Part shown: in pieces, positions 36,408 to 63,693 of the stretch
Position numbering within the stretch: the first letter of the stretch is position 1
Layout: each line of letters opens with the position of its first letter
NCBI RefSeq assembly: GCF_036365525.1
Contig: NW_027140922.1
Span: 1 to 64,000, forward strand
Length of the DNA: 64,000 nt
From: Heterodontus francisci
Taxonomy: Eukaryota
Reading direction: 5' to 3'
Notes under the pieces: generated by a model
What the model was told of the DNA's origin: nothing
Database searches by the model: none
Seen by the model: the letters and a program-made list of their open reading frames with translations, nothing else
Translations under genes and position numbers: made by a program

Positions 36408-36690
36408 ATGTTAGATGGTTCTCCAGTCCCCGGCGGCCAACGCCCTGGTTCCCGGGGAGGAAACCACGCTCCACAGCAGTATTGGGCAGGGCAACATGAC
36501 TGGTATGGACTGGTACTTGCAGATTGGTGACTGCCTGGAATGGATTAGATAGAGTGTACTTTCTGCATCTAAATGCAGGAAAAGGATTGAAACCCAGCAC
36601 GAGACTCAAGCCAACACTTTGACTCTGTCCTTGAAAAGCTCCCGTGCACAAGACAACATCACTTACTACTGCGCGGCTCACAAGTACACA
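36408..36690 (+). pseudogene. TRBV: TCR V pseudogene 1 (same family as the V at 45380)
   Basis: VLQSPAANALVPGEETTLHSSIGQGNMTGMDWYLQIGDCLEWIR*...QDNITYYCAA: first Cys lost, in-frame TAG; followed by a 23-RSS. Confidence 0.8.
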
Positions 36691-36729
36691 CACAGTGTAA
36701 CTAGAATGCAAGGAAACACGGCATAAACT
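36691..36729 (+). other. 23-RSS
   Basis: CACAGTG + 23 bp + GCATAAACT. Confidence 0.85.
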
Positions 36730-37756
36730 CGGGAATGATGTAATACACCTTCCCCCAGTCTTTGGGGGTATGGTAGTATAGCTGTTATGTTACTGGGACT
36801 AGTAATCCAGAGGCCTCGACTGAATAATCCAGAGCACAGGAGTTCAAATCCCACCACAGCTTCTGGGGGAATCTAACTAAACAAACATCACCTTAAATGT
36901 TCACTCCCACCACCACCGACGCACAGTGGAAGCAGTATGTACCAGCTGCAAAAAGCACTGCAGTAATGCACCAAGGCTCCTTCGACAGCACCTTCCAAAC
37001 CCGCGGCCTCTACCAACTAGATGGACAAGGGCAGCAGAATCATGGGGACACCACCGCCTGCAAGGTCCCCTCCAAGTCACACACCATCGTGACTTGGAAC
37101 TATATCACCGTTCCTTCATTGTCGCTGGGTCAAAATCCTGAAACTCCCTTCCTAACAGCACTGTGGGAGTACCTACACTACATGGACTGCAGTGGTTCAC
37201 GAAGGCAGCTCACCACCACCTTCTCAAGGGGCAATTAGGGATGGACAATAAATGCTGACCTCAACCAGCATCGCCCAAAATCCCATGAATGAATTAAAAA
37301 ATAGAAAATAACCGCACCAAAAATACATCAACAACCTCAACATGCAAAAACCAAATTGAACAACAATTTAAACAGGGAAGAAAACAACAAGTACAACAAA
37401 AACCTCAGCAGGGAAAACACCAACCAACACAACAACTACCTCAGCAGGAGAACAAGGCCAACAAATTCAACAACAGATCAGCAGGAGATTCAAACACCAA
37501 CAAATTCAACAACCTCAGTCGGAGAAAAACACCAGCAAATACAACAACAACCTCAGCAGTAGAATGATACCAATAAATGCCACAGCAACTACTGGCAGCC
37601 AATGGTAGAGAGAGGGGCGTGGGTTCCCCATCAGGGAGGGAGGTGTTGTGCAAACCTGAATCACTTGCTTGAGTCTACATGTGGCTCCTCACAAGACTCA
37701 ACTGTCTTCTTTCCACTGATTTCCCAATTGCAGGATAAGCTTCCAGTGGAAGATGT

Positions 37757-38242
37757 ATGTTATTGAGTCTCATGGTCTTATTTCAAAGTAAAGGATCTTT
37801 CTCACCACCACCCCACACCCCCATTGTTTTTATTAACAGCTCTCTTTCTTATTTTCTTTCTCTCTATCTTTCTCTTCTTCCTTCATTCTTCACATCCCAG
37901 ATTGTCCATGTTCACTGACTTTCTTCTCTCCCGGTCTCTTCCCCCAGGCGCAATCTCCGCGAGGGTCCGCCAGACTCCCACCGCCGTCTCCAGATTTCCT
38001 GGGGAGGGAGTGAGACTGGAGTGCCGTGTGGAGGATGAGAGTAGCGGTTACATGTTCTGGTACAGACAGGACCGGGGAAGGAGCCGCGGCTGATGTTTTA
38101 CTCCACAGCTACACCAGGTGTGAACTCAGAGGGGACGGTGGAGGGTTTCAACGCCAAACGACCGACTGGCTCCCAGTTCAACCTGGAGTCCACCAGCCTG
38201 CAGGAGAATCACTCGGCCCTGTATTTCTGTGCCTGGAGTCAG
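37757..38242 (+). pseudogene. TRBV: TCR V segment 2 (CAWS type), leader 37757-37787, V exon 37948-38242, single-base frameshift in FR2
   Basis: Leader MLLSLMVLFQ with phase-1 GT; V exon RVRQTP...LECRV...YMFWYRQDRG, then a frameshift in a G run, then LMFYS...NHSALYFCAWS. Confidence 0.85.
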
Positions 38243-38281
38243 CACAGTGACTCAGAGAGACGGAGCAGTTCAACAAAACAC
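38243..38281 (+). other. 23-RSS
   Basis: CACAGTG + 23 bp + ACAAAACAC. Confidence 0.85.
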
Positions 38282-38907
38282 CAAGAGAAACACCTGTTTC
38301 AGATAAAAGCCTGCAGCTCTGTATCCTGTTGGGTTTACCTGTTGCAGTGTGAACATGTCTTTGACATGATGAAGACACAGGTTGCATTGAACGTCGGGGA
38401 AAAGTTGCACGGAAATATCTTCAAGGATGATAGGAGAACTGGGATGATATAATGATCAGAAAAAGACTGAACAGATTGGGCTCTTATCGCTTGAAAAGAG
38501 AAGGCTCAGGAGTGCCCTGATAGAGCTCTTTAAGATTATGAAAGGGTTTTTGATCAGATAAATGTAGAGAAGTTTTTTTTCATTTGCGGGTGAGACCAGA
38601 AAAAGGGGTGGGGCATCAATATAAGACAGTCAGCCATAAATCCAATTGGGAATTCGGGAGAAACATCTTCACCCAGAGAGTGGGGAGAATGTGGAACTCA
38701 TTATCACAGGCTGAGGGGAATAGGGAAGATATATTTAAGCTGAGGGGATGCTGGATAGGACATGAGGGAGAGAGGAACAGAAGGATATGTGGCTGGGGGC
38801 GCGATGAAGAGGGCGTGGAACAACGTTCGTGTGGACCAAAAAGACCAGCATGGATGTATCGGGACGAATGGCCTGTTGCTGTGCTGTAAATTCCCTGCAG
38901 CTGGAGC

Positions 38908-39410
38908 GAGGAGCAGGAGCACAAACAATGTGGGACTAGTCAGTGGAGCTGGGGGACTGACTCCTGGGTGAGTAGCAGGAACACCAACACTGTGGGACTT
39001 GTCAGTGGAGCTGGGGGACTGACTCCTGGGTGAGGAGCAGGAACACCAACACTGTGGGACCAGTCAGTGGAGCTGTGGGACTGACTCCTGGGTGAGTAGC
39101 AGGAACACCAACACTGTGGGACTAGTCAGTGGAGCTGGGGGACTGACTCCTGGGTGAGGAGCAGGAACACCAACACTGTGGGACTAGTCAGTGGAGCTGA
39201 GGGACTGACGCCTGGGTGAGTAGCAGGAACACCAACACTGTGGGACTAGTCAGTGGAGCTGGGGGACTGACTCCTGGGTGAGTAGCAGGAACACCAACAC
39301 TGTGGGACTAGTCAGTGGAGCTGGGGGACTGACTCCTGGGTGAGTAGCAGGAACACCAACACTGTGGGACCAGTCAGTGGAGCTGGGGGACTGACTCCTG
39401 GGTGAGTAGC
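38908..39410 (+). repeat. 62-bp minisatellite (~8 near-identical copies)
   Basis: Unit GAGTAGCAGGAACACCAACACTGTGGGACTAGTCAGTGGAGCTGGGGGACTGACTCCTGGGT; CACTGTG at 38988, 39050, 39112, 39174, 39236, 39298 and 39360. Confidence 0.95.
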
Positions 39411-39411
39411 A

Positions 39412-39730
39412 GCTTTTCTTTGTGATCTTTATCTAAACCTGTCACAATCTTGTACACCTCTATCAGGTCTCCACGCAATCTCAGTTTCTCCAGGGAGAAT
39501 AACACCAGTTTCTCCAACGTAACCTTGTAACTAAAATCCTCCATTCCTGGAACTATTCTGGTAAATCTCCTCTGCACCCACTCTATGACCCTCACCTCCT
39601 TCATAAAATGTGATGACCAGAACTGGAAGCAATTCTCCAGTTGTGGCCTAACTAGAGCATTATAAAGGTTCAGCATAACTTCCCAGTTTTTGTAGGCTGT
39701 GCGTCTATTTATGAATCCCAAGATCTCGCA
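39412..39730 (-). mobile_element. CR1 3' ORF2 fragment
   Basis: ORF 39374-39742: LYNALVRPQLENCFQFWS...RLRGDLIEVYKI. Confidence 0.85.
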
Positions 39731-39856
39731 TTTTTTGCTCATCTCATAGGTTTTTCTATTCCCATATTCTTTGCTACTGTTTCGAAGTACGGCCCCTGAT
39801 GTAATGTAGGAAGAGTGGAAGCCAGTTTCTACAAGGCAAGATCCCAGGAACAGACA

Positions 39857-40700
39857 ACCTGCTGAAGTTGTTGTTGAGTTTGTTGGTGTTTTTCCTGTTG
39901 AGGTGGTTGTTGAATTTGTTGGTGTTTTTCCTGCTGAGGTTGTTGTTCAATTTTATTGGTGTTTTTCTCCTGCTGAAGTTGTTGCTAACTTTGTTGATGT
40001 TTTTCTCCTGCTAAAGCTGTTGTTGGCATTGTTGGTGTTTTTCCTGTTGAAAGCGTTGTTGAATTTGATGGTGTTTTTCCTGTTGAAGTTGTTGTTGAAT
40101 TTGCTGGTGTTTTTATCCTGCTGCAGTTGTTGTTGAATTTGTTGGTGTTTTTCTCCTGCTGAAGTTGTTTTTGTATTTGTTGGTGTTATGTCCTGTTGAA
40201 GTTGTTGTTGAATTTGTTGATGTTTTTCCTGTAATAAGTTGTTGTTGAACTTGTTGGTGTTTTTCCTGTTGAAGTTGTTTCGTTCAGAGTTTAGTTTAGA
40301 GATACAGCACTGAAACAGGCCCTTCGGCCTACCATGTCTGTGCCAACCACCAACCACCAATTTATACTAATCCAACACTAATTCCATATTCCTACCACAT
40401 CCCAACCTGTCCCTGTATTTCCCTGCCACCTACCTTTACCACGGGCAATGTATAATGGCATGTGGGAGGAAACCGGAGCACCCACAGGAAACCCACGCAG
40501 ACACAGGGAGAACTTGCAAACTCCACACAGGCAGAATTGAACCCGGGTCGCTGGAGCTATGAGGCTGCGGTGCTAACAACTGGGCCACTGTGCCGCCCTT
40601 TTCATTGGTGCTTTTATTTTTCCTGTTGAAGTTATTGTTGAATTTGTTAGTGTTTTTTCCTGCTGCAGTTATTTTTGTATTTTTGGGGTGTTTTCTCCTC
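39857..40700 (-). repeat. ~38-bp CAA-rich minisatellite in reverse orientation, split by a SINE
   Basis: Reverse complement of the unit CAGGAGAAAAACACCAACAAATTCAACAACAACTTCAG. Confidence 0.85.
40283..40598 (-). mobile_element. HE1/V-SINE-like tRNA-derived SINE
   Basis: Minus strand starts GGGCGGCACAGTGGCCCAGTTGTTAGCAC...GGGTTCAATT (A/B boxes), has the V-domain-like GTGTCTGCGTGGGTTTCC...GTGCTCCGGTTTCCTCCCACA, and a CR1-type tail. Confidence 0.85.
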
Positions 40701-42086
40701 CAGGGGGACAGCAGAGGGCGAGCAAGCACCAGGAAACACATCAGACTTCACCAATATTGATTAAAAAAATCATCGTTTACATTGTTCTGTAAAATTGATT
40801 CCTTTCTCTCTCTCTTCATGCCTGTTTCTCTGTCTCTGTTGCTCTTGTTATTTTTCCTCTCTCAAACACACTCACTCTCATTCTCTTTCTTTATCCCTGT
40901 CTCTCTTTCCTTCTCTCATTTCCTCTCAGCTCTGTTGCTTTTTCTGTCTCTCACACACACACCCATTCTCATTCTCTCTCTTTATCTCACTCTCTTCTTT
41001 CCTTCCCCTCTCTTTCTCGCCTCTCATTTCCACACTTTCTCTTGCTGTCTGTCTCTATTTCTCTCTCACACGCACTCAGTCTCATTCTGTCTCTCTGTCT
41101 CTAATTAATTCTGCCTATCTCCTCTCATTTCCTGTCTCTGTGTTGCTCTGTCTCTGTCTCTCCCTGTCTGTCTCTGCACCTCCTATTGCCTCATTCTCTC
41201 TATCTGTCACTCGTTCTCTCAATCTCTCTCTCTCTCTCTCTTTCGAACTAATTTTGCCTGAATCATTCCATCTCTCAGTGGCTTTGTTAATCAGTCTGTC
41301 TCTCTCTCTCTGTCTTTGCCTCAGTCTACCTCTCCCTTGCTCTCTCTCAGTTGTTCTCTCTCTCTCATTCTCTCTTTATTTCTCCCTATGTGGGGTTCCC
41401 CGGGATGGCCTCTGCCTGTCCGGCTCTGTTCCCCTCTAAGGTTTTGTTGGTATGATGTGGTCAGAGGGTGCTCTGCAAGGAATACAACGCCAGTGACACT
41501 GGTTATTTGACCTATCTGCAGTTTCCACAGCAGCAGGGGCGGTTTGATCACACTGCTTATAACGAGCCTCCACCTCTGAAAAGAATCTCAAAGTAGTTTG
41601 AGATCTGCTTTCCATATTCCTGCTTTCCAGCTTTAAGACAGGAAACACCACTGTCCCCATTTGGTCCCATTGTTGATGAAGTTAATGTTCGTAATAGTTA
41701 CTTTATGCATTGCTAGACATAATCTCCTCGTCAACCAAATTGAAATAATTTACTGTTCCTTGATGTGAACAGCAGTTAGGATTATTCTGACAGAGTATCA
41801 TCATTAAACATTACCAATTTTCTTTTTTCTCAGATGCAGACTGAATTGGTGTGTGTTCATCCTTCCGAGTTTGGTGCATTTATAGTTTTATCAATGTAAT
41901 AAATCTGATTTATAATTGGGCTTAACTTGTGGAGCAAATATAAGTGTGAATGTAGCAGCGTGACTCTAGAAGAATAATTTGTCTCCTTCTTATTCCCTCT
42001 CTTCTGCTTTTGCCTCTGTCCCTCCCTGTGGCCCACTGTCGTTCTCTCCCCATTGATCTGCCATACTGTGTGAAGAATCTTGTTAG

Positions 42087-42375
42087 ATGTTAGATGGTTC
42101 TCCAGTCCCCAGTGGTCAATGCCCTGGTTCCCGTGGAGGAACCCACGTTCCACAGAAGCATTGGGCAGGGCAACATGACTGAGTGTTGCTTGGACTGGTA
42201 ATTGCAGATTGGTGACTGCCTGGAATGGATCAGATAGAGTGTACTTTCTGCATTGAACTACAGGAAAAGGATTGAAACCCAGCACGAGACTCAGGCAAAC
42301 ATTTTCACTCTGTCATTGAAAAGCTCCCGGGTCCAAGACAACAGCACTTACTACTGCGGGGCTCGCAAGGATACA
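42087..42375 (+). pseudogene. TRBV: TCR V pseudogene 3 (duplicate of pseudogene 1)
   Basis: Paralogous to 36408-36690; first Cys lost, TAA after the FR2 Trp plus the shared TAG; ends QDNSTYYCGAR. Confidence 0.8.
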
Positions 42376-42414
42376 CACAGTGTAACTAGAATGCAAGGAA
42401 ACACGGCAAAAACT
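42376..42414 (+). other. 23-RSS
   Basis: CACAGTG + 23 bp + GCAAAAACT. Confidence 0.88.
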
Positions 42415-43309
42415 TGGGAATTGTGAAATACACCTTACCCCAGTCTCTGGGGGTACGGTAGCATTGCTGTTATGTTACTGGGACTACTAATCCTGAGGCT
42501 TCGACCGAATGATCCAGAGCACAAGAGTTCAAATCCCACCACAGCAGCTGGGGGAATCTAACTAAGCAAACACCACCTTAAATATTCACTCCCTCCGCCA
42601 CCGACGCACAGTGGAAGCAGTGTGTACCAGCTACACAATGCACTGCAGTAACGCACCAAGGCTCCTTCGACAGCACCTTCCACACCCGCGACCTCAATCG
42701 CGAAGGACAAGTGCAGCAAACGCATGGGAACACCACCACCTGCAAGTTCCCCTCCAAGCCACACACCATCCTGACTTGGAACTGTATCGGCCGTTCCTTC
42801 ACTGTCGCTGGGTCAAAATCCTGGAACTCCCTTCCTAACAGCACTGTGGGTGTACCCACCTCACATGGACTGCAGTGGTTCAAGAAGGCAGCTCACCACC
42901 ACCTTCCCAAGGGCGATTAGGGATGGGCAATAATTGCTGGCCTGGCCAGTGATTCCCACATCCAATGAAATAATAAAAGAATGTTTGCAGATGTCACTAA
43001 AATCTGTGCACGGGTTAAGACAGTAGAGGGGTCCTGTGGAATCCAAAGTGATTTCCCTGTGGCAGGGGATTAGGCCACACAATGGCAACTGGCTTTAAAT
43101 TTAGGCAAATGTTGTGTTATGTACGTTGATGGGGCCTGAAATGAATCCAAGTATCACTTGCAGGGAAGACACTGAAAAAGGTCAGCAGAGAATTATTCTG
43201 GTCAGATCAGTGAAGGGTGAACACTGATGTAAAGAGCCTGCAGTTAAAGTTAACGGGTTTTTAGATTGTGTTAATGGAATCATCATGAATCAAATGACTA
43301 GATTTTAGA

Positions 43310-44760
43310 ATAACATGAGAAATCGGAGCAGGAGTAGACCATTCGGCCCGTCGATCCTGCTCTGTCATTCAATTCCATCATGACTGATCCTCTAACTCAA
43401 CTCCACTTTTCCACCCGCTCCCCATATCCCTTCAGTCCATCAGTGACCACATATCTGTCTATCACAACCTGAAATATATTCAATGATGGAGCATCCACCA
43501 CCCCCGGGAGTAGAGAATTCCAAAGATTAACCACCCTTTGAGTGAAGAAACCTCTCCTTATCTCAGTCCCAAATGCTTGACCCCTTAACCTGAGGCTGTA
43601 CTAGATTCCCCAGCCAGGGGAAACAACTTCTCAGTGTCTACCCAGTCAAGCACCTTCAGAATCTTGCATGTTTCACTGAGATCACCTTTCATTCTTCTAA
43701 ACTCCATAGACTATAGGCTCTCTCATCATAGGACAAACCTTTCATCCCAGGAACCAATGGAGTGACCCTTCGTTGTACTGCCACCAAGGCAAGTGTAGCC
43801 TTCCGCGGATCTGGAAACCAAAACTGCGTACAGTAAAGCAGGTGTGATCTTACCAAAGCGCTGGCCAATTGTAACAAGACTTCCTTATTCCTGTACTCCA
43901 ATCCCACTTGCAATAAAGGCCAACAGGCCATTTGCCTTGCTAATTTCTTGCTGCACCTGCATGTGAACTTACTGAGTCTCATGTACGGGGACACCCAAGC
44001 CTCTCTGAACATCAACATCGAGAAGATTCACGCCTTGTAAAAAATTATATTCTTACAACCAAAGTGAACAACCTCATTCTTCCCCACATTATACTCCATC
44101 TGCCAATCACTTATTTTGAAATTATGCTGCCTAGTTCTAGATTCGCCCACCAGGGGGAAACATCCTCTCGGCTTCCAAGCTGTCAATCCCCCTTAAAATA
44201 TTACATGTCTCGGTAAGATCACCTCTCATTCTTCTAAACTCCAGTGGGTATCGGCTCAAACTGCTCAACATTTCCTCATAAGACAACCCCTTCATCCCAG
44301 GTATCAGCCGAGTGAACCTTCTCTGAACTAATTCCAATGCATTTATGTCCTTTCTTAATTACGTAGACCAATACTTTACTCAGTACTCCAGATGTGGTCT
44401 AACTAAGGCCCTGTACAGCTGTAGCAACACTTCCCTACTTTTATATTCTATTCCCTTTGCAATAAACAACAACATTTCATTTGCCGCCCTAATCACTTGC
44501 TGTACCTACATGTTGACTTTTTGTGATTCACGGACCAGGACACGCAGATCCCTCTGTACTGTCGAGACCTGCAGTCTCTCTCTATTTAAATAATATTCTG
44601 AATTCCCATTCTTCCTGCCAAAGTGGGCAAGCTCACATTTGCCCACAGTATACTCCATCTGCCATTTTTTGCCCACTTACTTAACCTATCTATAACCCTC
44701 TGCAGACTCTTTGTGCCCTCCTCACAATTTGTTTTCCAACCTATCTTTCGCATGGTCAGC
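43310..44760 (-). mobile_element. Two adjacent degenerate CR1 3' fragments
   Basis: ORFs 43689-44018 and 44137-44337 (VQRRFTRLIPGMKGLSYEE, RRMRGDL). Confidence 0.8.
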
Positions 44761-45051
44761 ACATTCCTGACCAATCAAAAAATAAGGCAATATTCCATGG
44801 AAGGAAAGGTGGGAATGTTGGGAAGGGAAGAGAGAAAGTCGGGCTAAGGGGCTTGCAGGAATCTGCAAAAATAACAGCAATGCTGCCGAGGGAAGTGCTC
44901 CTCATTTGTTCACTCTGCTGACAGGCGTGGTCGAGGTACAGGATGGGCGGCCAATCGTTCCACTCTTTTCATCACAACCGGTGGCATTTCCATTTACCAG
45001 GCGCTGGCTTGTTGCTCAGTAAGGGCTGCCTCTCTGCTTCTGAGAAGGGCG

Positions 45052-45677
45052 ATGGCACTCTTAGCTAAAAACGTCTCAATCTTGGTTATCTTATTGCTTG
45101 GACATTGGATTTTTTGTAAGTGCTATCCCTTCAGCAGGTGGAAGTAGATTCAATAGTAATCTCCCAAATGGCTATTGGATCAGTGCTTGGAGCGGGGAAA
45201 TTGGGAGGGCAATGGGGTAGGATCAGGGGCAAGTGAGACTAACTCGATAGCTCTTTCAAACAGCCAGCGCAGATACGATGGGCAGAACGGCCTCTTTCTA
45301 TTCTGTTAGATTTTCTGATTTATGCTACCATTTTCCTTCCATGAGTCTGAATTACTTTCTTTTATGGAATGTGATCCAGGGGTTCAGTCTGCACCCACTG
45401 TGGTCCAGACTCCAGCTGCGGCTTCTATACGACCGGGGAAGCCCCTCGCCCTCGGCTGCAGCTTGGAGGGAGCCAGCATGGGCAGCTACACCATGCACTG
45501 GTACAGGCAGGAGGGGAAGGCAGTAAAGTGGATGTGCAATGAGCACGGCAGCTGTGGGCCAGGCTTTGAGAAGCGGTTCACTGTGCAACACGACGCTGCA
45601 AGCAACCGATTCTCCCTGCAGCTGGGCGACCCCCAGCCGACAGACACTGCGACCTACTACTGTGCAGCGAGTATGGG
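45052..45677 (+). CDS. TRBV: TCR V segment 4, apparently functional; leader 45052-45115, V exon 45380-45677
   Basis: Spliced product MALLAKNVSILVILLLGHWIFWVQSAPTVVQTP...LGCSLEGASMGSYTMHWYRQ...DTATYYCAAS; GTAAGT donor, CAG acceptor, phase 1; conserved Cys-Trp-Cys. Confidence 0.85.
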
Positions 45678-45716
45678 CACAGTGATACAACCCTGCTGCA
45701 GAGTGAGACAAAAACT
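45678..45716 (+). other. 23-RSS
   Basis: CACAGTG + 23 bp + ACAAAAACT. Confidence 0.93.
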
Positions 45717-47640: not shown

Positions 47641-49922
47641 TAGGGGTGTTGAAAGGGATTGGTGAAGTAGGTGGAAATAACACAGCCGGCACATGAGCAT
47701 TTTGTGGGAGTTTAGGATGGAGGGTTGCTGGGGAGTGTTAATGAGGGTTGCTGGATGGGAGCTCAGCCAAGTAACTGTGCATGTATCGCTTGCATGGAGG
47801 AGGCTGGGGTTAGCTACAGAGCAGTGAGGGGAAAGATTGAAACAGACCAGATGATGTGTCTGGGGGTGAGGACAGGCCATGCAGTGTACACACACCCGTG
47901 TTGAGGTCTCTATTCAATTATATTTCTCAATCTCTCTATCTGCTTTCATTCACAGGATGTGGTTGTGACACTGTTATGCAGAATTCAGTGCCCACCACCT
48001 CACCGTCCTTGAGAAGATGGCGATGAGCCAACCCCCATTGCTGTCTGTTCCCGTCACAGCTTTTGTACGACCGACTGTCTTGCCCGGCCAATGCAGAGGG
48101 CCTTTTAAGAATCAACCATATTGTTGTGGGACTGGAGTCACCTCTTAGGCCAGACCGGATAAGGATGGCAGGTTTCTTTATCTCAGTGACGATGAGTTTT
48201 TTGTCCAATACTGTAGGTTAATGTTCACCATGACTGAGAGCAGCTTTTCATCAATTCCAGCTTTATCTAATGAAGGGAATTGAAATAATCCAGCATGCTG
48301 GGATTTGAATTCACATCTCCAGGTTATTAGCCCAGGCCTTTACATTAATAGCCCAGGAACATAACACTTTGCTACCTTACCCTTTAACCTACTGTTTTGC
48401 CTCAGGCCTAGGAGTGGAAAAATACAAATGTGTGCAGGGCAAACCCACAGAACAGGCTGTTTTTTTTTCTTGCTGCATCCGTGAACATGTTGAAACATTT
48501 ACAGCTGCACTCTGATAACCACACATCCTGACGGTGCCTTTCCTGTCTCTGTGTCTCTCTGTACAATGCGATTCTGTTGCTGTGTTGTGCTGACAAAGTC
48601 CTTCCACATGAGTATGCGAAGGAAACAGCGCAGAGGAATTTGCAGGTGGTTATGGCGACAAATTGAATTGACAGGAGAGATAGGAGGAGTTGCACTAGCT
48701 GGGTTGATCTTGCAGAGAGCTCGCATGGACTCGATGGGATGAATGGCCTCCTTCTGTACTGTAACCAGTCTCTGATTCTATGATCGATTCCCTGTGGTCG
48801 GAGAATCTGAAAATATCTTTGATCAGTTAATCAAGTGTGAAGGAAATGCAGCACCCAACATGTTTACATTGCTTGTTCTTTATTCCCTCGGGTAGAGAAG
48901 ATTAAATGGTGATTTGACTGAGGTGTTTAAAATGATTGAATGGGTTGATCGGCGAGATGGAGATAAACTGCTTCCTCTTGTTGGGGGCGGGGCACGGGGG
49001 TAGAACAAGGTGGTCTAAACCCAAAATTCGAGCCAGGCTATTCAGGAGTGAAGTCAGGAAGTACTTCTTCACACAAAGGGGAGTGGACATCTGTATCCCG
49101 TGCGCAGATTAGTGCTTGGAAGGTAAATAAAATGTATTCATTTTGTACAAATGGTGTGATAGTGAATCCTTCAGAACAACAGTACTTTATTTTTAAGACT
49201 GGCAGCTAAACTATAAAAGCACGTGTTAGAGTGATATTTACCCCATACATGACAGTATTGTTGTTCATTACACCTCTGGATTTATCAGAATGTCTATTGC
49301 ACCATCTATCTCTCTGTATCTCCCTTTCTCTGGATCTATCTATCTATGAATCTGCATATCTATCTTCATATCTATCTATCTCTCCGTCCATTTATCTGTC
49401 TCTCGATGCATCACTGTATCTATCTGTCTATCTATGTTATCCAATTATCTGTATATCTGCCTATTTCATTACCTATCTATATAGAATCTCTATCTATCAA
49501 TATTTATTTACATATCTCTTTCTCTCTGTCTAACGATATATGTACCTCTATGTCTGTCCCTCCCACTCTCCCTTTCTCTCTGTCTCTCTTTCTCTCTCTC
49601 CCTGTCCTCTGAGCTCCTTCACGTCTGTTGTCCATGTATAGATTGTTGCTGTTTTTCTCCCTCTGTCTGTGTGCTTCCCTCTCTCTCTTACTCTCTCTCT
49701 CTGTCTCTGCTTCTCTCCTTTTTTCTCACTCTATATCATTCTATGTCTTTCTCTGAGTCTCTCTCTCTCTCTCTGTGCATCTCTCCCTCTCCCACCTCTC
49801 CCTTTTTACAATGAAACACGGGACATTTCGGGCACACGGGAGATCGTTCGGCCCATCGTGCCTGTCCCCTCATCGTGGCCGATGTCCAATTTAAATCTTG
49901 TCCCTGGGGGTATCTCTATCTT

Positions 49923-49956: not shown

Positions 49957-50255
49957 ATGTAGGGGCCGTGCTGAACCAACAGTCTCCCGCTTCCATATCC
50001 CATTCCCCAGGCTGTCCAGTCAATATCCAGTGTATTTACACAGAAGCAGTAGCTGGCTCCGCATTCTACCGGTACTGGTGGTATCTGGACCATAAGCCCG
50101 AGAACCTTTTCTATTCCACCTCTGCCGGAACGGTCATTCCCTCCGGTGAGGTGGACGGTTTCACCGCCAGGAGACCCGACAACACCCATTTTCACCTGGA
50201 GTCCTCCAGCCTGTGGGCGAATCAATCAGCCGTGTATTACTGTGCCTGGAGTCAG
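49957..50255 (+). CDS. TRBV: TCR V segment 5 (CAWS type), open frame but canonical Trp41 replaced by Arg; leader uncertain
   Basis: TTTTACAG acceptor; VGAVLNQQSP...IQCIY...FYRYWW...NQSAVYYCAWS; close paralogue of the V at 58358, which has FYWYRW. Confidence 0.78.
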
Positions 50256-50294
50256 CACAGTGACTCAGAAAGGCGCCGGAGTTCAGCAAAAACT
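50256..50294 (+). other. 23-RSS
   Basis: CACAGTG + 23 bp + GCAAAAACT. Confidence 0.9.
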
Positions 50295-51484: not shown

Positions 51485-52300
51485 ATGCAGTTAGTCAAAC
51501 TCTTCCTAATCGTCTGTTCTCTTCTTCCATGTAGGTATTCATTGTTCATAAAGATACCTCTGCTAAAATACATGCTGTGTTTTCATTCACTACTAACTTC
51601 TATCAAACTAGATTGATAAAACATCATTGCAGTCGATTTTCTGTCATTTCTTAAACTACATACTTTACTTTCACTGTAAATAATATTTACTTAATGAAAT
51701 TGTTGACTGAATGAAAGTTACTTATATATTCGTGACGCTACTACAGCTATCTTTAACCGATAAGTTTGCCCTCATTCTGGGTTAATTTGTCTCTCTCATA
51801 TCACTTGCTCCATTATTTTTCAGTCACGATATCTATCTGTTTATTATCTATATATCTACAAATATATCATTTAACTATTTATTGTCTGCCTATATAGTTA
51901 TCTAGTATTATCTACTTATCTGTTTGGATAGTTATAGTTGGTTATCATATGTCACAATATGTTCCAAACTTTTTTAACTATTCTCCTTATTTCTCAAGGC
52001 AAAACTTTAGCAGAGGTGATACACCAGTGGCCAACTCTGGTGGCAGTGAAGGGAGGCGAACCAGCAGAATTAAACTGTTACCAGAATGACAGTAGTAAGA
52101 GCATTATGATGTGGTATCGGCAGTATGCCGGGCAGGAGCTCACCCTAATGGGCTATTCTTACACTGGAAGCTCACCCACGTACGAAGGAAAATTTGAAGA
52201 GGAGGTGAAGATTTTAAGGCCCGAGGACAAACGATGCAGCCTGAGGGTCCTCAAGGTTAAGGCTGCGGATGCGGCCGTGTATTACTGTGCAGCCAGTGAG
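51485..52300 (+). CDS. TRBV: TCR V segment 6, apparently functional; leader 51485-51530, V exon 51999-52300
   Basis: MQLVKLFLIVCSLLPCKTLAEVIHQWP...LNCYQNDSSKSIMMWYRQYAGQELTLMGYSY...DAAVYYCAAS; phase-1 splice sites. Confidence 0.9.
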
Positions 52301-52339
52301 CACAGCGCTGCAGACTGCCTTAGTGCCAGTACAAAAACC
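52301..52339 (+). other. 23-RSS
   Basis: CACAGCG + 23 bp + consensus ACAAAAACC. Confidence 0.93.
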
Positions 52340-53563: not shown

Positions 53564-53634
<71 letters not shown>

Positions 53635-53950
53635 TCAGGCAGATAGATAGATAGAAATACAGATGTGTAGACAGATTGATAGATAGACAGACAGATAGGT
53701 AGACAGATAGATGGACAAATAGTCAAATAGATTGTTAGACAGACAGATATGCAGATAGGTCGATATGAAGACAGACAGACAAAAGATAGGTAGATATGAA
53801 GACAGACAGATGGATTCATACAGATAGAAAGACAAATTGACACAGATAGACAGACAGACACACAGCCATGCAGCTGGATAGATAGAGATAAAGATAGACA
53901 GATAGCTACAGAGATAGATAGATAGCTATATAGATAAACAGACAGAGATC
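53520..53950 (+). repeat. (GATA/GACA)n microsatellite with a pure AGAT core near 53565-53622
   Basis: Directly visible. Confidence 0.93.
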
Positions 53951-54092
53951 TTTTTCTCCCTTTCTCCATCTATCTCTATCACTGCCTCTCTTTTACTCTA
54001 TCTGTTTTTCACCATATCATCCTCTCTGATTCTGTCTCGCACTATGTCTCTCGCTCATTCCTTGGCACTTTCACACACACTCTATCACTCCA

Positions 54093-55690
54093 ATAGAATC
54101 ATAGAAAGTTTAAGGAACAGCAAGAGGCCACTTGGCCCATCGTGTCGGTGGCGGCCGAAAAACAATCCACCTATTCATATCACACCTTCCAGCATTTGGT
54201 CCATAGCCCTGCAGATTACGGCACTTGAGGTGCATATCCAGACTCCTTTGAATGAGTTGAGAGTGTCTGCCTCAACTACCCTTTCAGGCTTTGAGTACCT
54301 GACACCCACTACCCTCTAAGGCTTTCCTTATCTCCCCTCTAATTCTTCTACCAATCACATTATATCTCTTCCCCCTCGTCACTGATCTCTCTGCCAAGAT
54401 GAATAGACCCTTCACCTCCACTCTATCCAGGCCCCTTCAATATTTTGCACATTTCAAACAGACCTCCCCTCAGCTTTCTCTGTTCCAAGGAGAACAACCC
54501 CAGCCTATCCAATCTTTCCGCATAGCTCCATTTTCCAGTTCTGGCAACATCCTCGTAAATCCCCTCTGTACCCTCTCTAGTGCAATTACATTCTTTCTGC
54601 AATGAGGTGACCAGAACTGCACACAGTACTCAAGTTGTGGCCCAACCAATGAGTGATACAGTTCCAGCATAACCTCCCTGCTCTTGTATTCTGTACCTCA
54701 GCTAATAAAGGAACGGATTCCATATGCCTTCTTAACCACCTTATCGACCTGTCCTGCTACCTTCAGTGATCTGTAGACATTCACTCCAAGGTCCCTCACT
54801 TCCTCTGCACTTCTCAGTATTTTCCCATTAATCGTGTATTCCTTTGCCTTGTTTGACCACCCCAAATGCATCACCTCACACCTCTCCAAGTTGGATTCCA
54901 TTTGCCACTCTTCTGCCCATCTGACAAGACCATCAATATCTTCCTGCAGCCTACACCAATCCTCCATGCGATCTACCACACGGCTAATCCTTGTGTTGTC
55001 TACATACATTTGGATTATGCCCCCCTACATTTACATCCAAATCGTTAATAAATACCACAAAAAGCAGGGAACCCAATACTGAGCCCTGTGCAACGCCACT
55101 GCAAACAGCCCTCCAGTCGCTAAAACAACCATCAACAATTACCCTTTGTTTCCTGCCACTGAGCCAATTTTGTATCCACCTTGCTGCATTTCCCTGGATC
55201 CCATGGGATTTTGTTTTTTTTAACCAGTCTGCCATGTGCAGCCTTTTCAAAAGCCTTGCTAAAATCCAGGTAGACCACGTCAACTGCACTACCCTCATCT
55301 ATCTTCCTTGTTACTTCTTCAAAAAATTCGATCGAATTGATCAAACAAGTTCATCCCTTAACAAATCTATGCTGACTATCCTGGATTAATCTGTGCCTTT
55401 CTAAGTGACAGTTTATCCTGTCTCCCAGAATAGATTGCAATAATTTGCTCACTACTGAGGTCAGACTGACTGGCCTGTAATTAGTCAGTCTATCCTTCTC
55501 TCCCTTTTTAGACGGAGACACAACGTTAACAATTCTCCAATCCTCCGGCACCACACCTGTAATCAGTGAGGACTGCAAAAAGATGGTCAGATCCTCTGCT
55601 ATATCTTCTCTTGCTTCTTTTTGCAGCCTAGGATTCATTTCATCCTGCCCTGGTGATTTATCAACTTTCATGGATGCTAATCCCATTAAT
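54093..55690 (-). mobile_element. Degenerate CR1 LINE (RT region to 3' tail)
   Basis: ORFs 55351-55830 (KSPGQD, VPEDWR, NYRPVSLTS), 54984-55298 (GVAQGSVLG) and 54698-55009. Confidence 0.88.
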
Positions 55691-55694
55691 GATT

Positions 55695-56100
55695 CCTCCC
55701 TCAGCTTCGCTCCCTTAAATCCAGAGCAACCAGCAGAAAGTGTCTTAGATCCGCCGCAAACATGCCATTCAATTTCATCGACGTTTACTATTTTCCTTCT
55801 GTCGCTGAGTATGTTTAAATTCTGGCACAATTACTGTTTTACATTTGATCAACTGCTTAATGAGCTCAACAAGACTGTGCGGCGGTGACTTGTGAAATCA
55901 GCAATCAATTATTGAATATAAGATAGTGAACTCATTAATCTGTTCAACCTTTTTTGGCAACAAAATTGTGAAGAATATACTGTTAACCATATAATATCTA
56001 CACCCACTTCTACTCATGTAGATTTCACTATTCTGCTTTACATCTGTACAGATACTGGAAGGAAATTAGGACAAAGACTGAATTTGTATCGTTAATTCTG
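55695..56100 (+). pseudogene. Orphan V promoter/leader/intron copy A (leader 55762-55808, 1-nt frameshift, no V exon)
   Basis: Aligns by eye to 59430-59830; the leader is 47 nt versus 46 nt in the intact copy. Confidence 0.75.
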
Positions 56101-56539
56101 CGGGTAATAATCCTCTGCAGGAGAGGATGAAACACTGAGAAGGAGGATGAATTTCGGGAAGTGACTTGAAGAAGCCCACAGCATGGGTTTCACTGGGAAA
56201 GTAACAAACACAGTTTGTTGCAGTTGCGCCATGCTGCCACTGGTCGGCGCAGTGGCTCCACTATATTTCGCGCCACCACAGGCTTTGGCGCCGCTGATCA
56301 ATGAGTCAATTCCTCTGCTTCTGCAATCTTTTCACTTTAAAGGCTAAACGCAGTTCGATTTCCACTTTACAGTGATGTTATATGAGCCGCCTCCGAGGCC
56401 ATCGAACTATCCACCTTCTTTTCCTCCACTACTGATTTTAATTTGCAAAAGGATGTGAATAATCGCCTGTTCTGCACCATAACCTCTGGAGTCACCCAAA
56501 GCAGCTATCGTTGCACCGCCCCTTGTTTTTTTCACCTAC

Positions 56540-57160
56540 CCTCTCCAACACCTCGCTACCTTCAGAATTCCCCTCGCCTCGGCATGAAAGCAAGCTCACA
56601 AAGGCTTGTGAAGATATTTGCAGCAGAGTAGAAAGTGGGGTGCAAGGGGCGGGGGGGGGGGGGAATGGAGAGAAGAAACAAGTGGAAAGGGGCGGAAGGA
56701 AGCAAACAAAAGAATGGGGGACAACTTAAAAAGTAGGGGCGGGGACCATCTCAATGACGTTCTGCACTAGGGGAACTACAACTGCCTCTCACCCTTAAAC
56801 CAGAGTAACCAGCAGAAAGTGTCTCAGATCTGCACCAAACATCCCTTTCAACTTCACCACCTTTGCTATTTTCCTTCTGGCGCTGAGTAGGTTAAAATTG
56901 TGTCCCAATCACACTTCTACATTTGATCAACTGATTAATGATCTCAATAAAACTGTGAAATCAGCAATCAATCATTTGATAGAAGATAGTGAAGTCTTTA
57001 ACCTGTTCCCTAGTTTGGGTGCCCAAGTGTTACTAATATGATGTTAACACTTTAATAATTCCACCCACTTGCAAGCATGTAGATTCCATTAGTTTATTTC
57101 ACAGTTTTATAGATCCAGGTTCTCGTAGGAAATTCGGTCAAAGACCCAATTTCCTAAATT
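56540..57160 (+). pseudogene. Orphan V promoter/leader/intron copy B (leader 56841-56886, ATG changed to ATC, no V exon)
   Basis: Aligns by eye to 59170-59820, including the GC box, TGACG and CCTTAAA. Confidence 0.75.
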
Positions 57161-57769
57161 TCCTAAAACAAAAACCCTCACAACAGGCTGGGCTCAGACT
57201 GGGCTAATGTGACAGGGGGAAGCAGAGAGACACACTGAGAATACTATAAGATGGTGGAACTGATTGATAGGGTAGATTTACAGAGGAAGTTTCCACAAAG
57301 TCAATCCCATCACATACCGATTCGATACAGCATTAAGCCTATCACGCATTGATTAGGTACAGAGGCAAACCCATCACCGAGCAATAAGGTGCAGAGTAAA
57401 ATCTCCCATTCACTGGTTAGATCAGGATGACAGACAAACAGTGTAACTCCCCTTTCCTCCCCTCACATCACTGCTATCTCAGAGGGATCCTCTGAGTTGC
57501 AGCAGTGTTAAAGTAACTCCAGACCCCGCCATCAATGGGAGGACACAGCCCGGCCGATTACTCAGGTCCTGGTTTAACCCCGCCCCAGATAAGTTCAGTC
57601 CCCTTGTGGGAGACAATGAACAAGTACAAAGAGATTTGCTCCTCCCATACGACCATTTAACAGTGGGGAGGAGGGGACAGTAAATCCCACTCAGAACATT
57701 GAGAGATTCCGCAATAAAACAGCTCAGTGATTTCACACAATGAACACATGGATCTGTCTCCCTCCAGAG

Positions 57770-58656
57770 ATGACTGTGTCTCACCTCTGGGTTGTGTTGC
57801 TGGTGTTAAGGGGTAAGGTGGAACTGAACTGGGAGATGTCAGTGATCCTCACTGATCCTTCCCCGAATGTCCCCTTTGGGGTTTAACCCCCTTCGAGGTT
57901 TATTAACACCGTTTGGCTGTGTAGATTCTCTCTGCATCGGTTTATATATCATTCGGTCTATCTCTCTCTTTTTCTTCCTCTCTTTGTCACACTTTCTCTC
58001 TCCCCATCCTCTTTTTTCTTTCTTTTTCTAGTCTGACTCTCCTTTTGTCCGTTTCTCACTCTCTCTGTCCTTGTCTGCTTTCTTCTCTCTCTCTCTCTCT
58101 TTCTCTCACTCTTTACCTTTCTTTGTCCTATCGATTACCCTTGGTTTTACTTTTAACTTTCTGTCATGCTCTCTCTCTCTCTTTCTGCATGTCTCATTTT
58201 CTCTCACTCACTCTTTCTCCCTCTCTATTTTTCTGTCTTTATAACACGAATCTCTCTCTCTCTGTCTCTCTCTCACACATACTCCCACCTCTCCATTCCT
58301 TTGCCCCTTCATGGTGTATCATTCTTAACACCTCTCTTCTCACTTTGTGTTTTACAGATGTAGGAGCCGTGCTGATCCAACAGATTCCCCCTTCTATATC
58401 CCATTCCCCAGGATCTCCAGTCAGCATCGAGTGCATTTGCACTGAAGCAGCAGCTAACTCGTATTTCTACTGGTACCGATGGCACCCTGACAGTGAGCCT
58501 CAGGACCTTTTCTATTCTGACTACATCGACATGGTCACCCCCTCCGGTGAGGTGGACGGTTTCACCGCCAGGAGACCTGACAGCACTCACTTTTACCTGG
58601 AGTCCTCCGGCCTGTGGGAGAATCACTCAGCCGTGTATTACTGTGCCTGGAGTTTA
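57770..58656 (+). CDS. TRBV: TCR V segment 7 (CAWS type), apparently functional; leader 57770-57812, V exon 58358-58656
   Basis: MTVSHLWVVLLVLRDVGAVLIQQIP...IECIC...YFYWYRW...NHSAVYYCAWS; GTAAGG donor, TTTTACAG acceptor. Confidence 0.88.
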
Positions 58657-58695
58657 CACAGTGACTCAGAGAAATACAGCAGTTCAACAAAAACC
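58657..58695 (+). other. 23-RSS (full consensus)
   Basis: CACAGTG + 23 bp + ACAAAAACC. Confidence 0.95.
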
Positions 58696-59354
58696 CCAAA
58701 GGAGACAGGAATTAACTGTGGCAGAGTGATCTGTCTCTCTGTCTGCCTATGAGTCTGTCTGTCTCCTTGCATGTCTCTTTATCAATCTGTCTATCTAAAC
58801 ACACAACTGTCTGTCTGCATCTGTACATACATTTCACTCATCCACCTGTCTGCAACCTGTCTATCGATCTATCATCCACTAACCTCCCTGCCTCTATTCT
58901 TTACTTCATGACGTTAAATAAATGACATACCATTCACATCGATTAGTCGACCTACTCTCTGTAAATGTAGAAGAGTTCAACTCATTTTGAGTTATCAATA
59001 ATGCCATGTCAATGATTGTCTCGCCTCTCTCTTCACTGCTGCCTCTATAAATTAACAAGTGCATGAGAAGAGGGGTGAAAAGGGGGTTTAAAGGGCAGAG
59101 CTGAAAGGGTGGAAGGAGGAGTGTGGGGAGCCGTTATGCTGTCTGAGGGAAAGGATTGGGACAAATCCCCTTCTCCAACACCTCGATACCTTCAGAGATC
59201 ACCTGGCTTCGGTGTGAAAGCAAGCTCACAAAGAGATAGGAATGAGGATATTTACAGCGGAGCAGAAAGTGACGAGGGGGGAGGCAAGGGGAGAGAATAA
59301 AGAGGGAAACGGTGGCATAAAGAAGCAAGCAAAAGAATGGGGGACAACTTCAAG

Positions 59355-59442
59355 GTAGGGGCGGGGATCATTGCCTTGAGATAACTTCCTCTTATGACGA
59401 TCCGCTCTGCCAACACCTCATCTCTCTCCCTCCCTTAAAACC
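59355..59442 (+). promoter_or_regulatory. Putative V promoter (GC box, CRE half-site, TATA-like)
   Basis: GGGGCGGGG, TGACG and CCTTAAAA upstream of the leader ATG at 59483; the same order is kept in the paralogous copy at 56736-56800. TCR V-beta promoters are known to carry CRE-like decamers. Confidence 0.5.
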
Positions 59443-59482
59443 CAGAGTAACCTGCAGAAAGTCTCTCAGATCCACAGCAAAC

Positions 59483-60215
59483 ATGCCTTTCAGTTTCATC
59501 CTCTTTGCTATTTCCATTCTGGCGCTGAGTAGGTGAAAATTCTGTCCCAATCACTCTTCTACATTTGATAATTGAAAGGGATGATTAATGATCTCAATAT
59601 AACTGAGCGGAGGTGACTTGTTAAATCAGTAATCGATTATTTCATATCAGACAGTGAACTCATTAATCTGTCCCCGAGTTTGGGAAGACAAGTGTTATTA
59701 ATATGATGTTAACACTTTAATGATTGCACCCACTTGCAAACTTGTCGATTCCACAATTCTATTTTACAGTTGTAAAGATCCAGGTGCTTGCAGGAAATTA
59801 GGACACAGACTGAATTTCCGTCGTTAATTCGGTGCAACACCGACGTCCGTCGTCGCAATAGTAACTCCATCGATACCAGTTCATTCCCTCTAATTTCTCT
59901 TTCTAGGTGTTTGCCGGGGTGATGTGATACATCAATGGCCTCAGTCACTGGCTGTTAAACAACCAGGACCCGTGGAAATGAACTGTCTGCAGAAAGGAAA
60001 GATTCGCGACTACATGTACTGGTATCGTCAGTCCCCCAGCAGAGGATTCCTCTCAATGGGCTCTGTTTACCTAGGCAGTGAACCTCAGTATGAAGATGGC
60101 TTTAAGAGCGGGTTTGTTATTACCAGCACTCTGGACAATAAGAAATCCACTCTGACGATCGAGAGTGTGAACGCCACGGACGAGGCGGTGTATTTCTGTG
60201 CAGCTGCTGATGGGA
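59483..60215 (+). CDS. TRBV: TCR V segment 8, apparently functional; leader 59483-59528, V exon 59907-60215
   Basis: MPFSFILFAISILALSVCRGDVIHQWP...MNCLQKGKIRDYMYWYRQSPSRG...DEAVYFCAA; phase-1 splice sites. Confidence 0.9.
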
Positions 60216-60254
60216 CACAGCGGTTCAGAGTCATTGGCCGCCTTGACAAAAACC
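60216..60254 (+). other. 23-RSS
   Basis: CACAGCG + 23 bp + ACAAAAACC. Confidence 0.93.
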
Positions 60255-60539
60255 CTCACACGTCTCCCTTCAAACGGGTGCATTTAACCCAGCATTCGGT
60301 GAAGAGCAGCCCTGGCTGATCGGATGCGGATCTGCATCTGTTCAGTGCCCGTTCGAGTGGCAGAACGCCCATGTTCTAACTCCCCACAACCTCCAGACAG
60401 ACAACACACACTGTCTGTGCCCACACCTGTATAATGGTTCATCGAACAGCTCTTCAACCCGTACCTCGGTTACACCACACCTGGAGCACTGTGCACAATT
60501 CTCAGCTCTATATACTTTGTTTAGACGACACCTGAAGTG

Positions 60540-61700
60540 CTGAGGACAATGCTGAGGGTGACCTGATAGAGGTGTTCAAGATTATGAAGGAATATGATAG
60601 GGTAGAGGAATAGAAGATGTCTGCACTTGTAGGGAAGGTCATTAATACATCATACTCACTAATAACTCCAAGAAATGAATTTACACAGAGTGGTGAGAAT
60701 GTGGAATTCACTAGCACACAGAAATAAATGATGTGTATAACCATATATATGTAAATGGATGCTGGATAAAAACATTAGGGAGCAGGAAATAGCACCTCAT
60801 ACTGATAGGGCTGGGTGAAGACATTGTTTATGTTCTTTCATCGGATGTTGGAATAAAATTTGCGAATAAGCTAACCAGCAATATAAAAACAGATGGTGGG
60901 AGCTTTTACATAAAAAGTAAGAGAGTAGCTAAAGTTGATGTTGGCCCCTTAGAGGTAAAGACAGGAGAAATTATCATGGGGAATAGGGGAATTGAAAAAA
61001 TATTTTGTGTCTGTCTTCACAGTAGAAGACATGCTTTGAAATTGCTCCGTCTTCCCATTTTTTATCCATTGCTTCGGCTGGTGACGCTGGTGACATCGAA
61101 TTAGATAGAAGATGCAGCATGGATTCAGGCTATTCGGCCCCATACCAGAAATAGGAAGTTATCTGGGGGCTAAAAAGAGTGAGGCAATTAAGGATTTTCA
61201 TATCAATTGAGAAAAAGTCTTCGAGAAATTTGAGGGATTAAAATGCGACAAGTCCCCTGGAGCAGATGGATTACATCCCAGGGTTCTAAAAGAGATAGCT
61301 GCAGAGATAGTGGAGGCACTGGCTATGATTTTCCAGAATTCCTTAGATTCAGGAATGGTGCCATCGGATTGAACGCTGACAAATGTTACACGGCTTTTCA
61401 AAAAAGGAGGTAATGAGAAATCTCAGGACAGGGGATCAATCATTCCGAACTGAGATGAGGAGAAATTGCTTCACTCAAAGCGTTGTGAATCTTTGGAATT
61501 CTCTACCCTAGAGTGTTGTGGATGCTCCTTCATTGAATACATTTAAGGCTGGGATTTCTGATCCCTCAGGAAATCAAGGGATATGGGGAGTAGGCAGGAA
61601 AGTGGAATTGAAGCCCAAGATCAGCCATGATTGTATTGAATGACGGAGCAAGCTCGATGGGATATATGGTCTACACCTGCTCCTATTTCTTGTGTTCTGT
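60540..61700 (+). mobile_element. Patchwork of degenerate CR1 fragments
   Basis: KSPGADGLHPRVLKE-encoding sequence near 61250 and a CR1 3' tail near 61620-61700. Confidence 0.75.
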
Positions 61701-62604
61701 GGGTCTGGAGTCACATGTAGACCAGACCAGGTAAGGAAGGCGGATTCCCTTCCCTAAAAGACATGAGTGAGCCAGCTGGGTGACAGGGCCCCTTAACTGA
61801 GACTAGCTTTCAATTGCAGATTTTCTGATGAAATAATTATATTTATTCATTAATTGAATTTAAATTCCACCATCTGACCTGGTGGGATTCGAACGCATGT
61901 CCCCTGGAGATTAGCCCCATTCTCTGGATTACCAGCTCAGTGACATGACAAGTACACCACCATCTGCCCCAGGCTAGTCTGGAACATGGTCCCATCGGGC
62001 CGAATAGCCTGAATCCATGCTGCATCTTCTATCTAATTCGATGTCACCAGCGTCACCAGCCGAAGCAATGGATAAAAAATGGGAAGACGGAGCAATTTCA
62101 AAGCATGTCTTCATAATGCCTATTTTATCAATTGCACTTTGCAAATCTCAGGTACCTGTAGTTACACATGACAGCCACGAGGTGGGGATGGAGCTCCACC
62201 GCAGCCTGAGTCCAACTTGCTTCTGTCAAGACTGACTGAGCAATGCAGCAGTGACTTGACCCATCTACCTAATAGTCAATTCCACTAACTCTGAAACAGA
62301 TTAAAATCATAACCATTCCACACAAAATAGACAACTGGATTTCCCCAAGTCTGCTCGTTCATAGTCACTGGTTTGACCAACACTTGTGATATACAAAAAC
62401 AGATGATCTGAAGGAAGTAAAGAGGGGAAGCAAAGTGAGAAAACAGTGAAAGAAAAATGAAGAAGGAGACATTTTATATAAAAACACATATTCAGGGATG
62501 CGCACATCACTGACAAGGCAAGAATTCATTACCTATGCTGAATTTCCCTTAACTGAATGACTTGCTAGTCCATTTCAGAGGCAGTTAACAGTGAACTACA
62601 TTGC

Positions 62605-63565
62605 TATCAGGTGATGCATTTTGGCAGAAGGGAGACAGAGAGGAAATACTGACTTAATGACACAGGCCTGAAGAGTGTTCAAGGACAGAGGGACCTGGGG
62701 CTTAATGTGCATAGATCTTTGAAGTTGGCAGGACATATTGAGAGAGAGGTTCGCAAAGCGTATGGGATCTTGGGATTCATGAATAGAGGTATAAAGTACA
62801 AAAGCAGGGAGGGTATGCTCAACATATATGAGGTTCTGGTTGGGCCCCAACTTGTGTACTGAGCCCGGTTCTGGTCACCACACTTGAGGAAGGATGTAGG
62901 GTCCTTGAGAGGGTGCAGAGGAGATTTACTGGAATGGTTCCAGGGATGAGAGAGTTTAGCTGCATGGTTAGGTTGGTGAAGCTGGGGTTGTTCTCCTTGG
63001 AGCAAAGGAGATTGAGGGGAGATTTGATAGAAGTGTACAAAATGAAGAGAGGTTTAGATAAAGTAGACAAAGAAAAACTGTTCCCATTAGCTGATTGTAC
63101 AAAGACTAGGGGACGAAGTGGATAGGAATAAAACAGAGAATAAAAGCTGCGATAAACTGAAATCTGGTAGGGAATTCACGAGAATTCTTTACCCAAAATA
63201 CAGAATTCACTGTCAGCAGAAACTGCTGAGACAAAGACAGGGAAAGGAAGAGGCCATTCAGCCCCTCAAATCTGTACCACCATTCAATGAGATCATGGCT
63301 GATCTGTGATCTAACTCCATATTCCCGCCTTTGCCCCATATCCCTGAATATATTTTGGATCACAAAAACCTATTCATCTCCGATTTCAAATTAACAATTG
63401 ATTCAGCATCAATTTCTGTGAGCAGAAGAGAGTTCAAACCTCTCCACCCATTGTGTGTAAAAGTGTTTCCTAATTTCACTCCTGAAAAGTCTGGCTCTAA
63501 TTTTTAGTCTAGGCCTCTTAGTCCTAGATTCCCAAACCAGCGGAAATAGTTTCTCTCTATCTACT
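62605..63565. mobile_element. CR1 fragments (+ strand 62605-63120; - strand tail 63240-63565)
   Basis: ORF 62913-63125 (QRRFTGMVPGM...RRLRGDLIEVYK); the reverse CR1 tail abuts the truncated V. Confidence 0.8.
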
Positions 63566-63588
63566 CCCAAAGACTAAATAAATACGAC

Positions 63589-63654
63589 TTCAAACTGGAG
63601 ACCTCCAGCCTGCGGGAGAATCACTCGGCCGTGTATTTCTGTGCCTGGAGAGAT
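63589..63654 (+). pseudogene. TRBV: 5'-truncated TCR V fragment 9 (CAW type, FR3 only)
   Basis: FKLETSSLRENHSAVYFCAWR, homologous to the end of V2; upstream sequence is CR1. Confidence 0.85.
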
Positions 63655-63693
63655 CACAGTGACTCAGAGAGATGGAGCAGTTCAACAAAAACA
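63655..63693 (+). other. 23-RSS
   Basis: CACAGTG + 23 bp + ACAAAAACA. Confidence 0.92.

Follow-up and report, generated by a model that had tools for sequence, protein, structure and literature searches.

Nine TCR-beta V segments of the horn shark Heterodontus francisci in a probable complex of repeated TRB units

Reviews describe the T-cell receptor (TCR) genes of sharks as single translocons, the TCR genes of cartilaginous fish being stated to be in a translocon arrangement (PMC6795676), and the highest C-beta counts that we found in the literature are five or six. A 64,000-nucleotide stretch of the 6.0-Gb assembly of Heterodontus francisci (the window, G000:C876:1-64000, the first bases of the 289-kb contig C876) contains an array of V segments, and raises the question of which receptor chain these segments serve and how many loci of that kind a single shark carries. 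Literature searches found no genomic account of TRB in this species. Several TCR-beta constant genes in the horn shark were reportedly described by Rast and Litman 1994 and by Hawke et al. 1996; the multiplicity of C-beta in this animal may partly be in print already.

The array consists of nine V segments, all on the plus strand, each followed by a recombination signal of the form CACAG(T/C)G, 23-bp spacer and nonamer; a Y[YF]C codon run precedes every one of the nine, and the RSS scan returned no such signal on the minus strand of the window. Under a strict definition the window holds nine signals against a mean of 0.49 and a maximum of 4 in 200 shuffles, and with the YxC run required as well the nine remain whilst all 200 shuffles give none, so that the nine V segments with 23-RSSs listed in the initial annotation are borne out in full. 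A looser scan was dropped in favour of the strict one, as shuffles matched its count (nine in the window, mean 4.95 and maximum 10 in 60 shuffles).

Of the nine V exons, five have an open frame and three are defective, the ninth being a 3' fragment. V1 (36408-36729) is a pseudogene of a lineage with a short CDR2 that has an in-frame stop, has lost its first Cys and ends in an RSS at 36691-36729; V3 (42090-42414, its exon beginning at about 42090) is a pseudogene paralog of V1 at 76% amino acid identity, with stops and an RSS at 42376-42414, and no splice acceptor was found for either. V2 (37948-38281), a member of the CAWS family, has a frameshift near 38085 and an RSS at 38243-38281. The intact V of the short-CDR2 type is V4 (45052-45716), with a leader at 45052-45115, an exon at 45380-45677 and an RSS at 45678-45716. 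V5 (49957-50294) is an open CAWS-family exon starting at 49957, with an RSS at 50256-50294 and an uncertain candidate leader at 48566-48611. Three further segments are intact: V6 (51485-52339), which ends in CAAS (leader 51485-51530, exon 51999-52300, RSS 52301-52339), V7 (57770-58695) of the CAWS type (leader 57770-57812, exon 58358-58656, consensus RSS 58657-58695) and V8 (59483-60254), which ends in CAAA (leader 59483-59528, exon 59907-60215, RSS 60216-60254). V9 (63578-63693, V sequence from about 63580) is a CAWS-family 3' fragment in which other DNA replaces the 5' part, with an RSS at 63655-63693, and its truncation recurs identically at G000:C407:289027. Phase-1 leaders had been claimed for five of the segments; those of V4, V6, V7 and V8 join in frame, and that of V5 is plausible only, because it was joined through an acceptor one base off, although the V5 exon does read open from 49957. 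At least four families can be told apart, with 24-41% identity between them, where at least three had been claimed, and tblastn with six of the window V found no V-like match in bases 1-36400, in agreement with the earlier remark that no V lies to the left.

The array had been taken as probable TCR-beta of a shark or ray, in part on the CAWS and CAAS ends. These ends alone leave the chain undecided, because antibodies made up most of the PDB matches to a CAWS V; multi-domain antibody constructs crowd the PDB results for V domains in general, and these did not classify the V segments. The nearest named proteins to the window V are from H. francisci itself, at 74-96% identity, and are gene models, as were all proteins returned by homolog searches with full-length chains (4, 4 and 1 proteins). 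Primer peptides used for nurse-shark V-beta, AVYYCAC and AVYFCA, match V ends on C876 (PMC5931798).

Linkage and putative transcripts say more. Paralogs of the ordered window block end 10 kb before D1 on two contigs, C779 and C2233, and it is by way of these paralogs that the D-beta, J-beta and C-beta expected downstream are present; the one D on the window's own contig is a divergent D at C876:274521. Contigs from four runs of one sample, putatively RNA and none of them recorded as RNA (the run contigs), contain the V6 leader splice 51530-51999 with GT..AG ends, as well as two V-D-J tails that run on beyond the V end of the V6 family, each with a D core and a J. In a genome search neither of these junctions is present as germline, one of them having been searched as such and found absent. 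Splicing of the V6 family to its leader and its joining to D-beta and J-beta are therefore seen in these putative-RNA contigs; the joins are seen at the level of the family, and the contigs tie them neither to a particular unit nor to the V6 copy in the window. Several V6-family variants appear in the run contigs, and the family also gives a read-through contig.

The D sequence was taken from the run contigs, a guessed D pattern having matched nothing. D1 (GGGACAACAGGGA) and D2 (GGGACAGGGGGGA) both have RSSs, and at all eight loci read a G-rich D is flanked by a 5' 12-RSS and a 3' 23-RSS. The J motif of the joins has eight germline occurrences, always 543 bases past a D that carries 12- and 23-RSS, and downstream of this D1-J pair lie more J, a second D in six of the eight, and then a C exon and a transmembrane (TM) exon. 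FGxG J motifs with donors were found, and a 12-bp spacer could be recognised by eye at some J, the scan having overlooked the degenerate signals of the first three. The best single-domain PDB matches of the C exon are TCR beta chains (E 3e-18), and a TM exon with a lysine motif accompanies 20 of the 21 C-beta copies. A conserved D core and a TM lysine are typical of beta chains.

That the V segments belong instead to a TRA/D, TRG or Ig locus is extremely improbable, and is largely refuted already. V4 does match antibody VH in the PDB, and it is the V4 family that gives the best matches in this genome to alpha/delta-type V of gar and bowfin, but the linkage to D-beta, J and C-beta and the observed joins contradict such an origin. 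Furthermore, no window V falls among the VH, VL or alpha/delta V of this genome in a tree of 73 rows and 97 columns in which many forks are open, and no alpha or delta constant gene is linked to the window V, the TRA/D-type C (basking-shark query) being found at two places only, both on the large contig C34. The TCR-beta assignment is supported by the nearest H. francisci proteins, the D-beta, J and C-beta adjoining the block paralogs and the V-D-J joins, and the nine segments are ordinary TRBV segments.

Several other loci were met with in the same genome. The two TRA/D-type constant exons, at G000:C34:3303665 and 3460189, face in opposite directions, are 40-45% identical to the basking-shark query and lie beside VH-like V with 23-RSS. 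L142 (G000:C42:8305801-8307800), on a large contig that is neither C34 nor one of the TRB contigs, is a V bearing a 23-RSS; it has a long branch and no close group in the tree, and may mark TRG or an extra locus. L123 and L124 (G000:C13:120.35 Mb and C650) are non-rearranging domains of joined VJ type without RSS, kin to multi-domain membrane proteins of other sharks.

Within the genome, V6 matches in both orientations, all 150 among the matches listed, fall on seven contigs. C876 itself has 21 V by the RSS scan and two more by tblastn, all on the plus strand, and includes a V-free stretch of 163 kb (C876:93000-256000) that is repeat-rich and in a k-mer profile consists mostly of TC-rich simple repeats; long ORFs on this contig look retroelement-like on reading. 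The initial annotation had taken the window as a possible 5' edge of the locus, a suggestion that is not supported, as the window is simply the start of a contig, two sites within the TRB contig C2233 carry 97% copies of its left flank, and paralogs of its V block sit mid-contig, flanked on either side by more V and C. The V-free, repeat-rich left flank (6583-34766) lies within the duplicated unit and has 92-99% copies on C2233. Because of this repetition the window is not shown to be a locus edge; what begins in it is a single V block, of which it is the 5' edge.

In sequence the window is mosaic, 93-99% identical to four paralogs by turns. As far as about 60.4 kb it matches D-proximal paralogs, beyond which it continues into a CAWS array as two other paralogs do; at the junction (60390-60550) similarity ends to two paralogs that reach D1 in the next 13 kb. 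The 13.6 kb around V5-V8 are 99.3% identical to C407. The end of C876 has no overlap with C1675 or C1317 among the matches listed, and a working D-J-C is absent from its 289 kb, the V of the contig pointing instead to a broken second unit 210 kb from the window V and in the same direction (274521-284909, with D at 274521, J at 274.5 kb and C at 284.6 kb).

The layout of the units is seen at C407:270-516 kb, where a head-to-head pair of units runs outward from nine V in the middle, and past one of the two C lies a V array in inverted orientation. The two units mapped have 15 and 20 J; there are several V per unit, and in most units two D. The second unit, consisting of a divergent D, one J, and a C and TM exon, faces C-beta from 16-20 kb downstream. 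It has 24 copies (L148-L171), and 23 of 23 script-anchored copies are broken, the remaining one not having been read. A second unit faces 18 of the 21 C-beta, and the other three C-beta are no more than 11 kb from the end of a contig. An older TRB with two isotypes in sharks is what the broken second unit points to.

Seven contigs, 8.5 Mb in total, hold 21 open C-beta exons, 23 D-J units and the 24 second-unit copies; they are small (0.3-2 Mb) and not joined to each other. The C exon has its 21 copies on six of these contigs, six of them on C407, with 98-100% amino acid identity between copies and the next matches at 57% or less. The D pattern finds 39 D, which group into 23 units (the reversed control gave 0), two D-J units at the ends of C761 having no C on that contig. 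Every one of the 21 C exons is open and 14 differ in DNA; nine of the 12 variable sites are silent and three are replacements (P 1.3e-4). Over 5.8 kb the C regions have a median identity of 97.5%, with 7 of 210 pairs at 99.5% or above, one of these pairs 100% identical throughout, and 16 regions distinct after collapsing. The eight D-J-C regions read are 92-99% alike by block, with large indels.

It would seem likely, then, that this shark carries many repeated beta loci rather than the one to six reported in other vertebrates, and six C-beta on C407 are a floor for the copy number if that contig is assembled right. These are assembly counts without read depth, and some inflation is possible because of the 100% C-region pair, the 99.3% V5-V8 stretch and the unjoined contigs; some copies may be alleles or assembly duplicates. 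Counted in this manner, the window belongs to a set of about 16 to 23 repeated TRB units that have a dead second isotype in common; the copy number, and not the nine V themselves, is the unusual part.

Could the numbers mislead? We consider it distinctly unlikely that the V array is TCR-beta whilst the copy number is mostly an artefact of assembly (both haplotypes, duplicated contigs) that hides a true ~5 to 10 units. Small, fragmented contigs and three groups of C regions that are 99.8-100% alike are what such an artefact would leave, but six C-beta lie on one contig, 201 of the 210 C-region pairs are below 99%, two of the near-identical groups are threesomes, which a pair of haplotypes does not yield, and one 99.9% pair differs by the loss of D2. 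The window, as a mosaic of four paralogs, is no duplicate of any of them, and the TRA/D-type C has two places only, both on one large contig. The open state of all C exons and their silent excess, next to a second C that is broken in all copies read, together with the several V6-family variants in the run contigs, argue against a different suggestion: that the units are real, that one or a few of them rearrange, and that the rest, C876 included, are silent passengers of recent duplication. This we hold to be rather unlikely, although C876 is without a working D-J-C and its V point to a broken unit, four of the nine window V are defective, and homogenisation alone is able to keep copies open.

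The reading we prefer, and regard as probable, is that the window is a V block of a TCR-beta complex that takes in the seven contigs with their 23 D-J units and 21 open C-beta exons, and that likely arose by repeated segmental duplication of a two-unit ancestral locus. The pieces of its working that can be observed directly are V with 23-RSS, D with 12/23-RSS, and, for one V family, leader splicing and non-germline junctions with D1 and a J. RAG would first bring D and J together and add V to the DJ afterwards, in a single unit or across adjacent ones, by deletion or inversion. We place the partner of the C876 V beyond the contig end because these V point to the broken unit; by analogy with other units, they would likely use an opposite-facing D-J-C-beta there by inversion. 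Unequal crossover or gene conversion may keep the units mosaic and alike, whilst selection would keep C-beta intact, and a T cell would likely keep to one beta chain because units are activated rarely and by chance, a mechanism that has been proposed for the IgH miniloci of sharks. In its fullest form, to which we give about an even chance, the proposal is that a haplotype has ~20 working TCR-beta loci, that each T cell picks one of some 40 D-J-C units, and that every unit keeps a fossil second C-beta isotype that was dead before the expansion.

Other TRB loci provide points of comparison. The bamboo shark (Chiloscyllium punctatum) is listed with two C, two D and 14 J (PMC10322711 supplementary file 16), and its locus resembles C407:270-516 kb in having a head-to-head D-J-C pair with few V between and inverted V arrays outside (PMC10322711). 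The bamboo shark table, however, shows this module once, against a total of 21 C and 39 D here, with 15-20 J in either of the two mapped units, and has no entry for the broken second C unit (PMC10322711). In the nurse shark TCR-beta is among the single-copy genes, with 9 BAC clones at 11-fold cover (PMC1513397 Table 2), and one C-beta contrasts with the 21 open C-beta exons of the present assembly (PMC1513397). The portion of PMC1845163 consulted holds nothing on TRB.

Several complete D-J-C-beta units per haplotype are also found in bichir, with five V-D-J-C units and five C-beta (PMC10322711), in axolotl, with five tandem D-J-C units in the text and six TRBC in the table (PMC12529555), and in salmonids, with up to four head-to-head loci and the question of allelic exclusion raised (PMC10464911); these have four to five times fewer units, whereas here the orientations are mixed and the C exons 98-100% alike. 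Shark Ig miniclusters share with the units described here the presence of many repeated rearranging units per genome, but each has one V and one J, whereas the TRB units have many V and J (PMC6795676, PMC12227049); in place of the one V, D, one J and C of a minicluster, the two mapped TRB units have their 15 and 20 J and several V. The squamate TRE, like the second unit, is a divergent TRB-derived D-J-C unit tied to inverted V, but the second unit sits within the TRB complex and all its copies that were read are broken, the likeness being one of layout (PMC11754216). If some 20 units with unit-specific J and C variants do exist, TCR-beta locus exclusion becomes directly testable, the boundary between Ig clusters and TCR translocons in sharks would not be fixed, and an MHC-restricted receptor chain would have gained antibody-like multiplicity.

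V4 has relations outside this species. Besides its short CDR2 it has an ortholog in catshark, 67% identical, and is related to gene models of gar, bowfin, paddlefish, songbirds and teleosts, one V4-related model being read, on its sequence, as ending in an apparent beta constant region. In the tree V4 groups with V of sole, tarpon, eel, anchovy and paddlefish at a support of 88/86, which is below the starred level, no salmonid sequence being among the 73 rows. The family has 21 genome copies, spread nearly as C-beta is (V4/C per contig 6/6, 4/4, 4/4, 3/3, 2/2, 1/2 and 1/0). On the published description V4 likely corresponds to salmonid TRBV6, which likewise has a short CDR2, as do teleost short-CDR2 V-beta, and about one copy per locus, whereas the shark V4 exon has no introns inside (PMC10464911). 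One run contig contains a V4 paralog that is transcribed and spliced yet unrearranged, and no other form of V4 transcript was seen in the run contigs, where a missing V4 join does not count as a sign that V4 does not rearrange. The idea of an antibody VH or VL moved into TRB was ruled out by the tree. A non-rearranging single-domain gene, suggested by a 228-codon open frame and the read-through transcript, was not adopted, because V4 has a good RSS and the V6 family is also read through.

Some smaller features of the window may be recorded. A second leader-like exon with an in-frame stop lies 5' of the true V4 leader (44880-44936) and is skipped in a run contig, and at 47957-48030 a splice acceptor leads into a few bases that resemble a V exon's beginning before they break off. 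The V8 leader exon, together with the DNA upstream of it, is nearly duplicated at 55763-55810 and again at 56840-56890, with no V exon after these copies and in one case no ATG. In the left flank a 1069-codon open frame at 1800-5006 encodes what we take to be the endonuclease and reverse transcriptase of a retroelement, and a tandem repeat of ~5.3 kb with retroelement fragments (11000-27500) is present on C2233 too.
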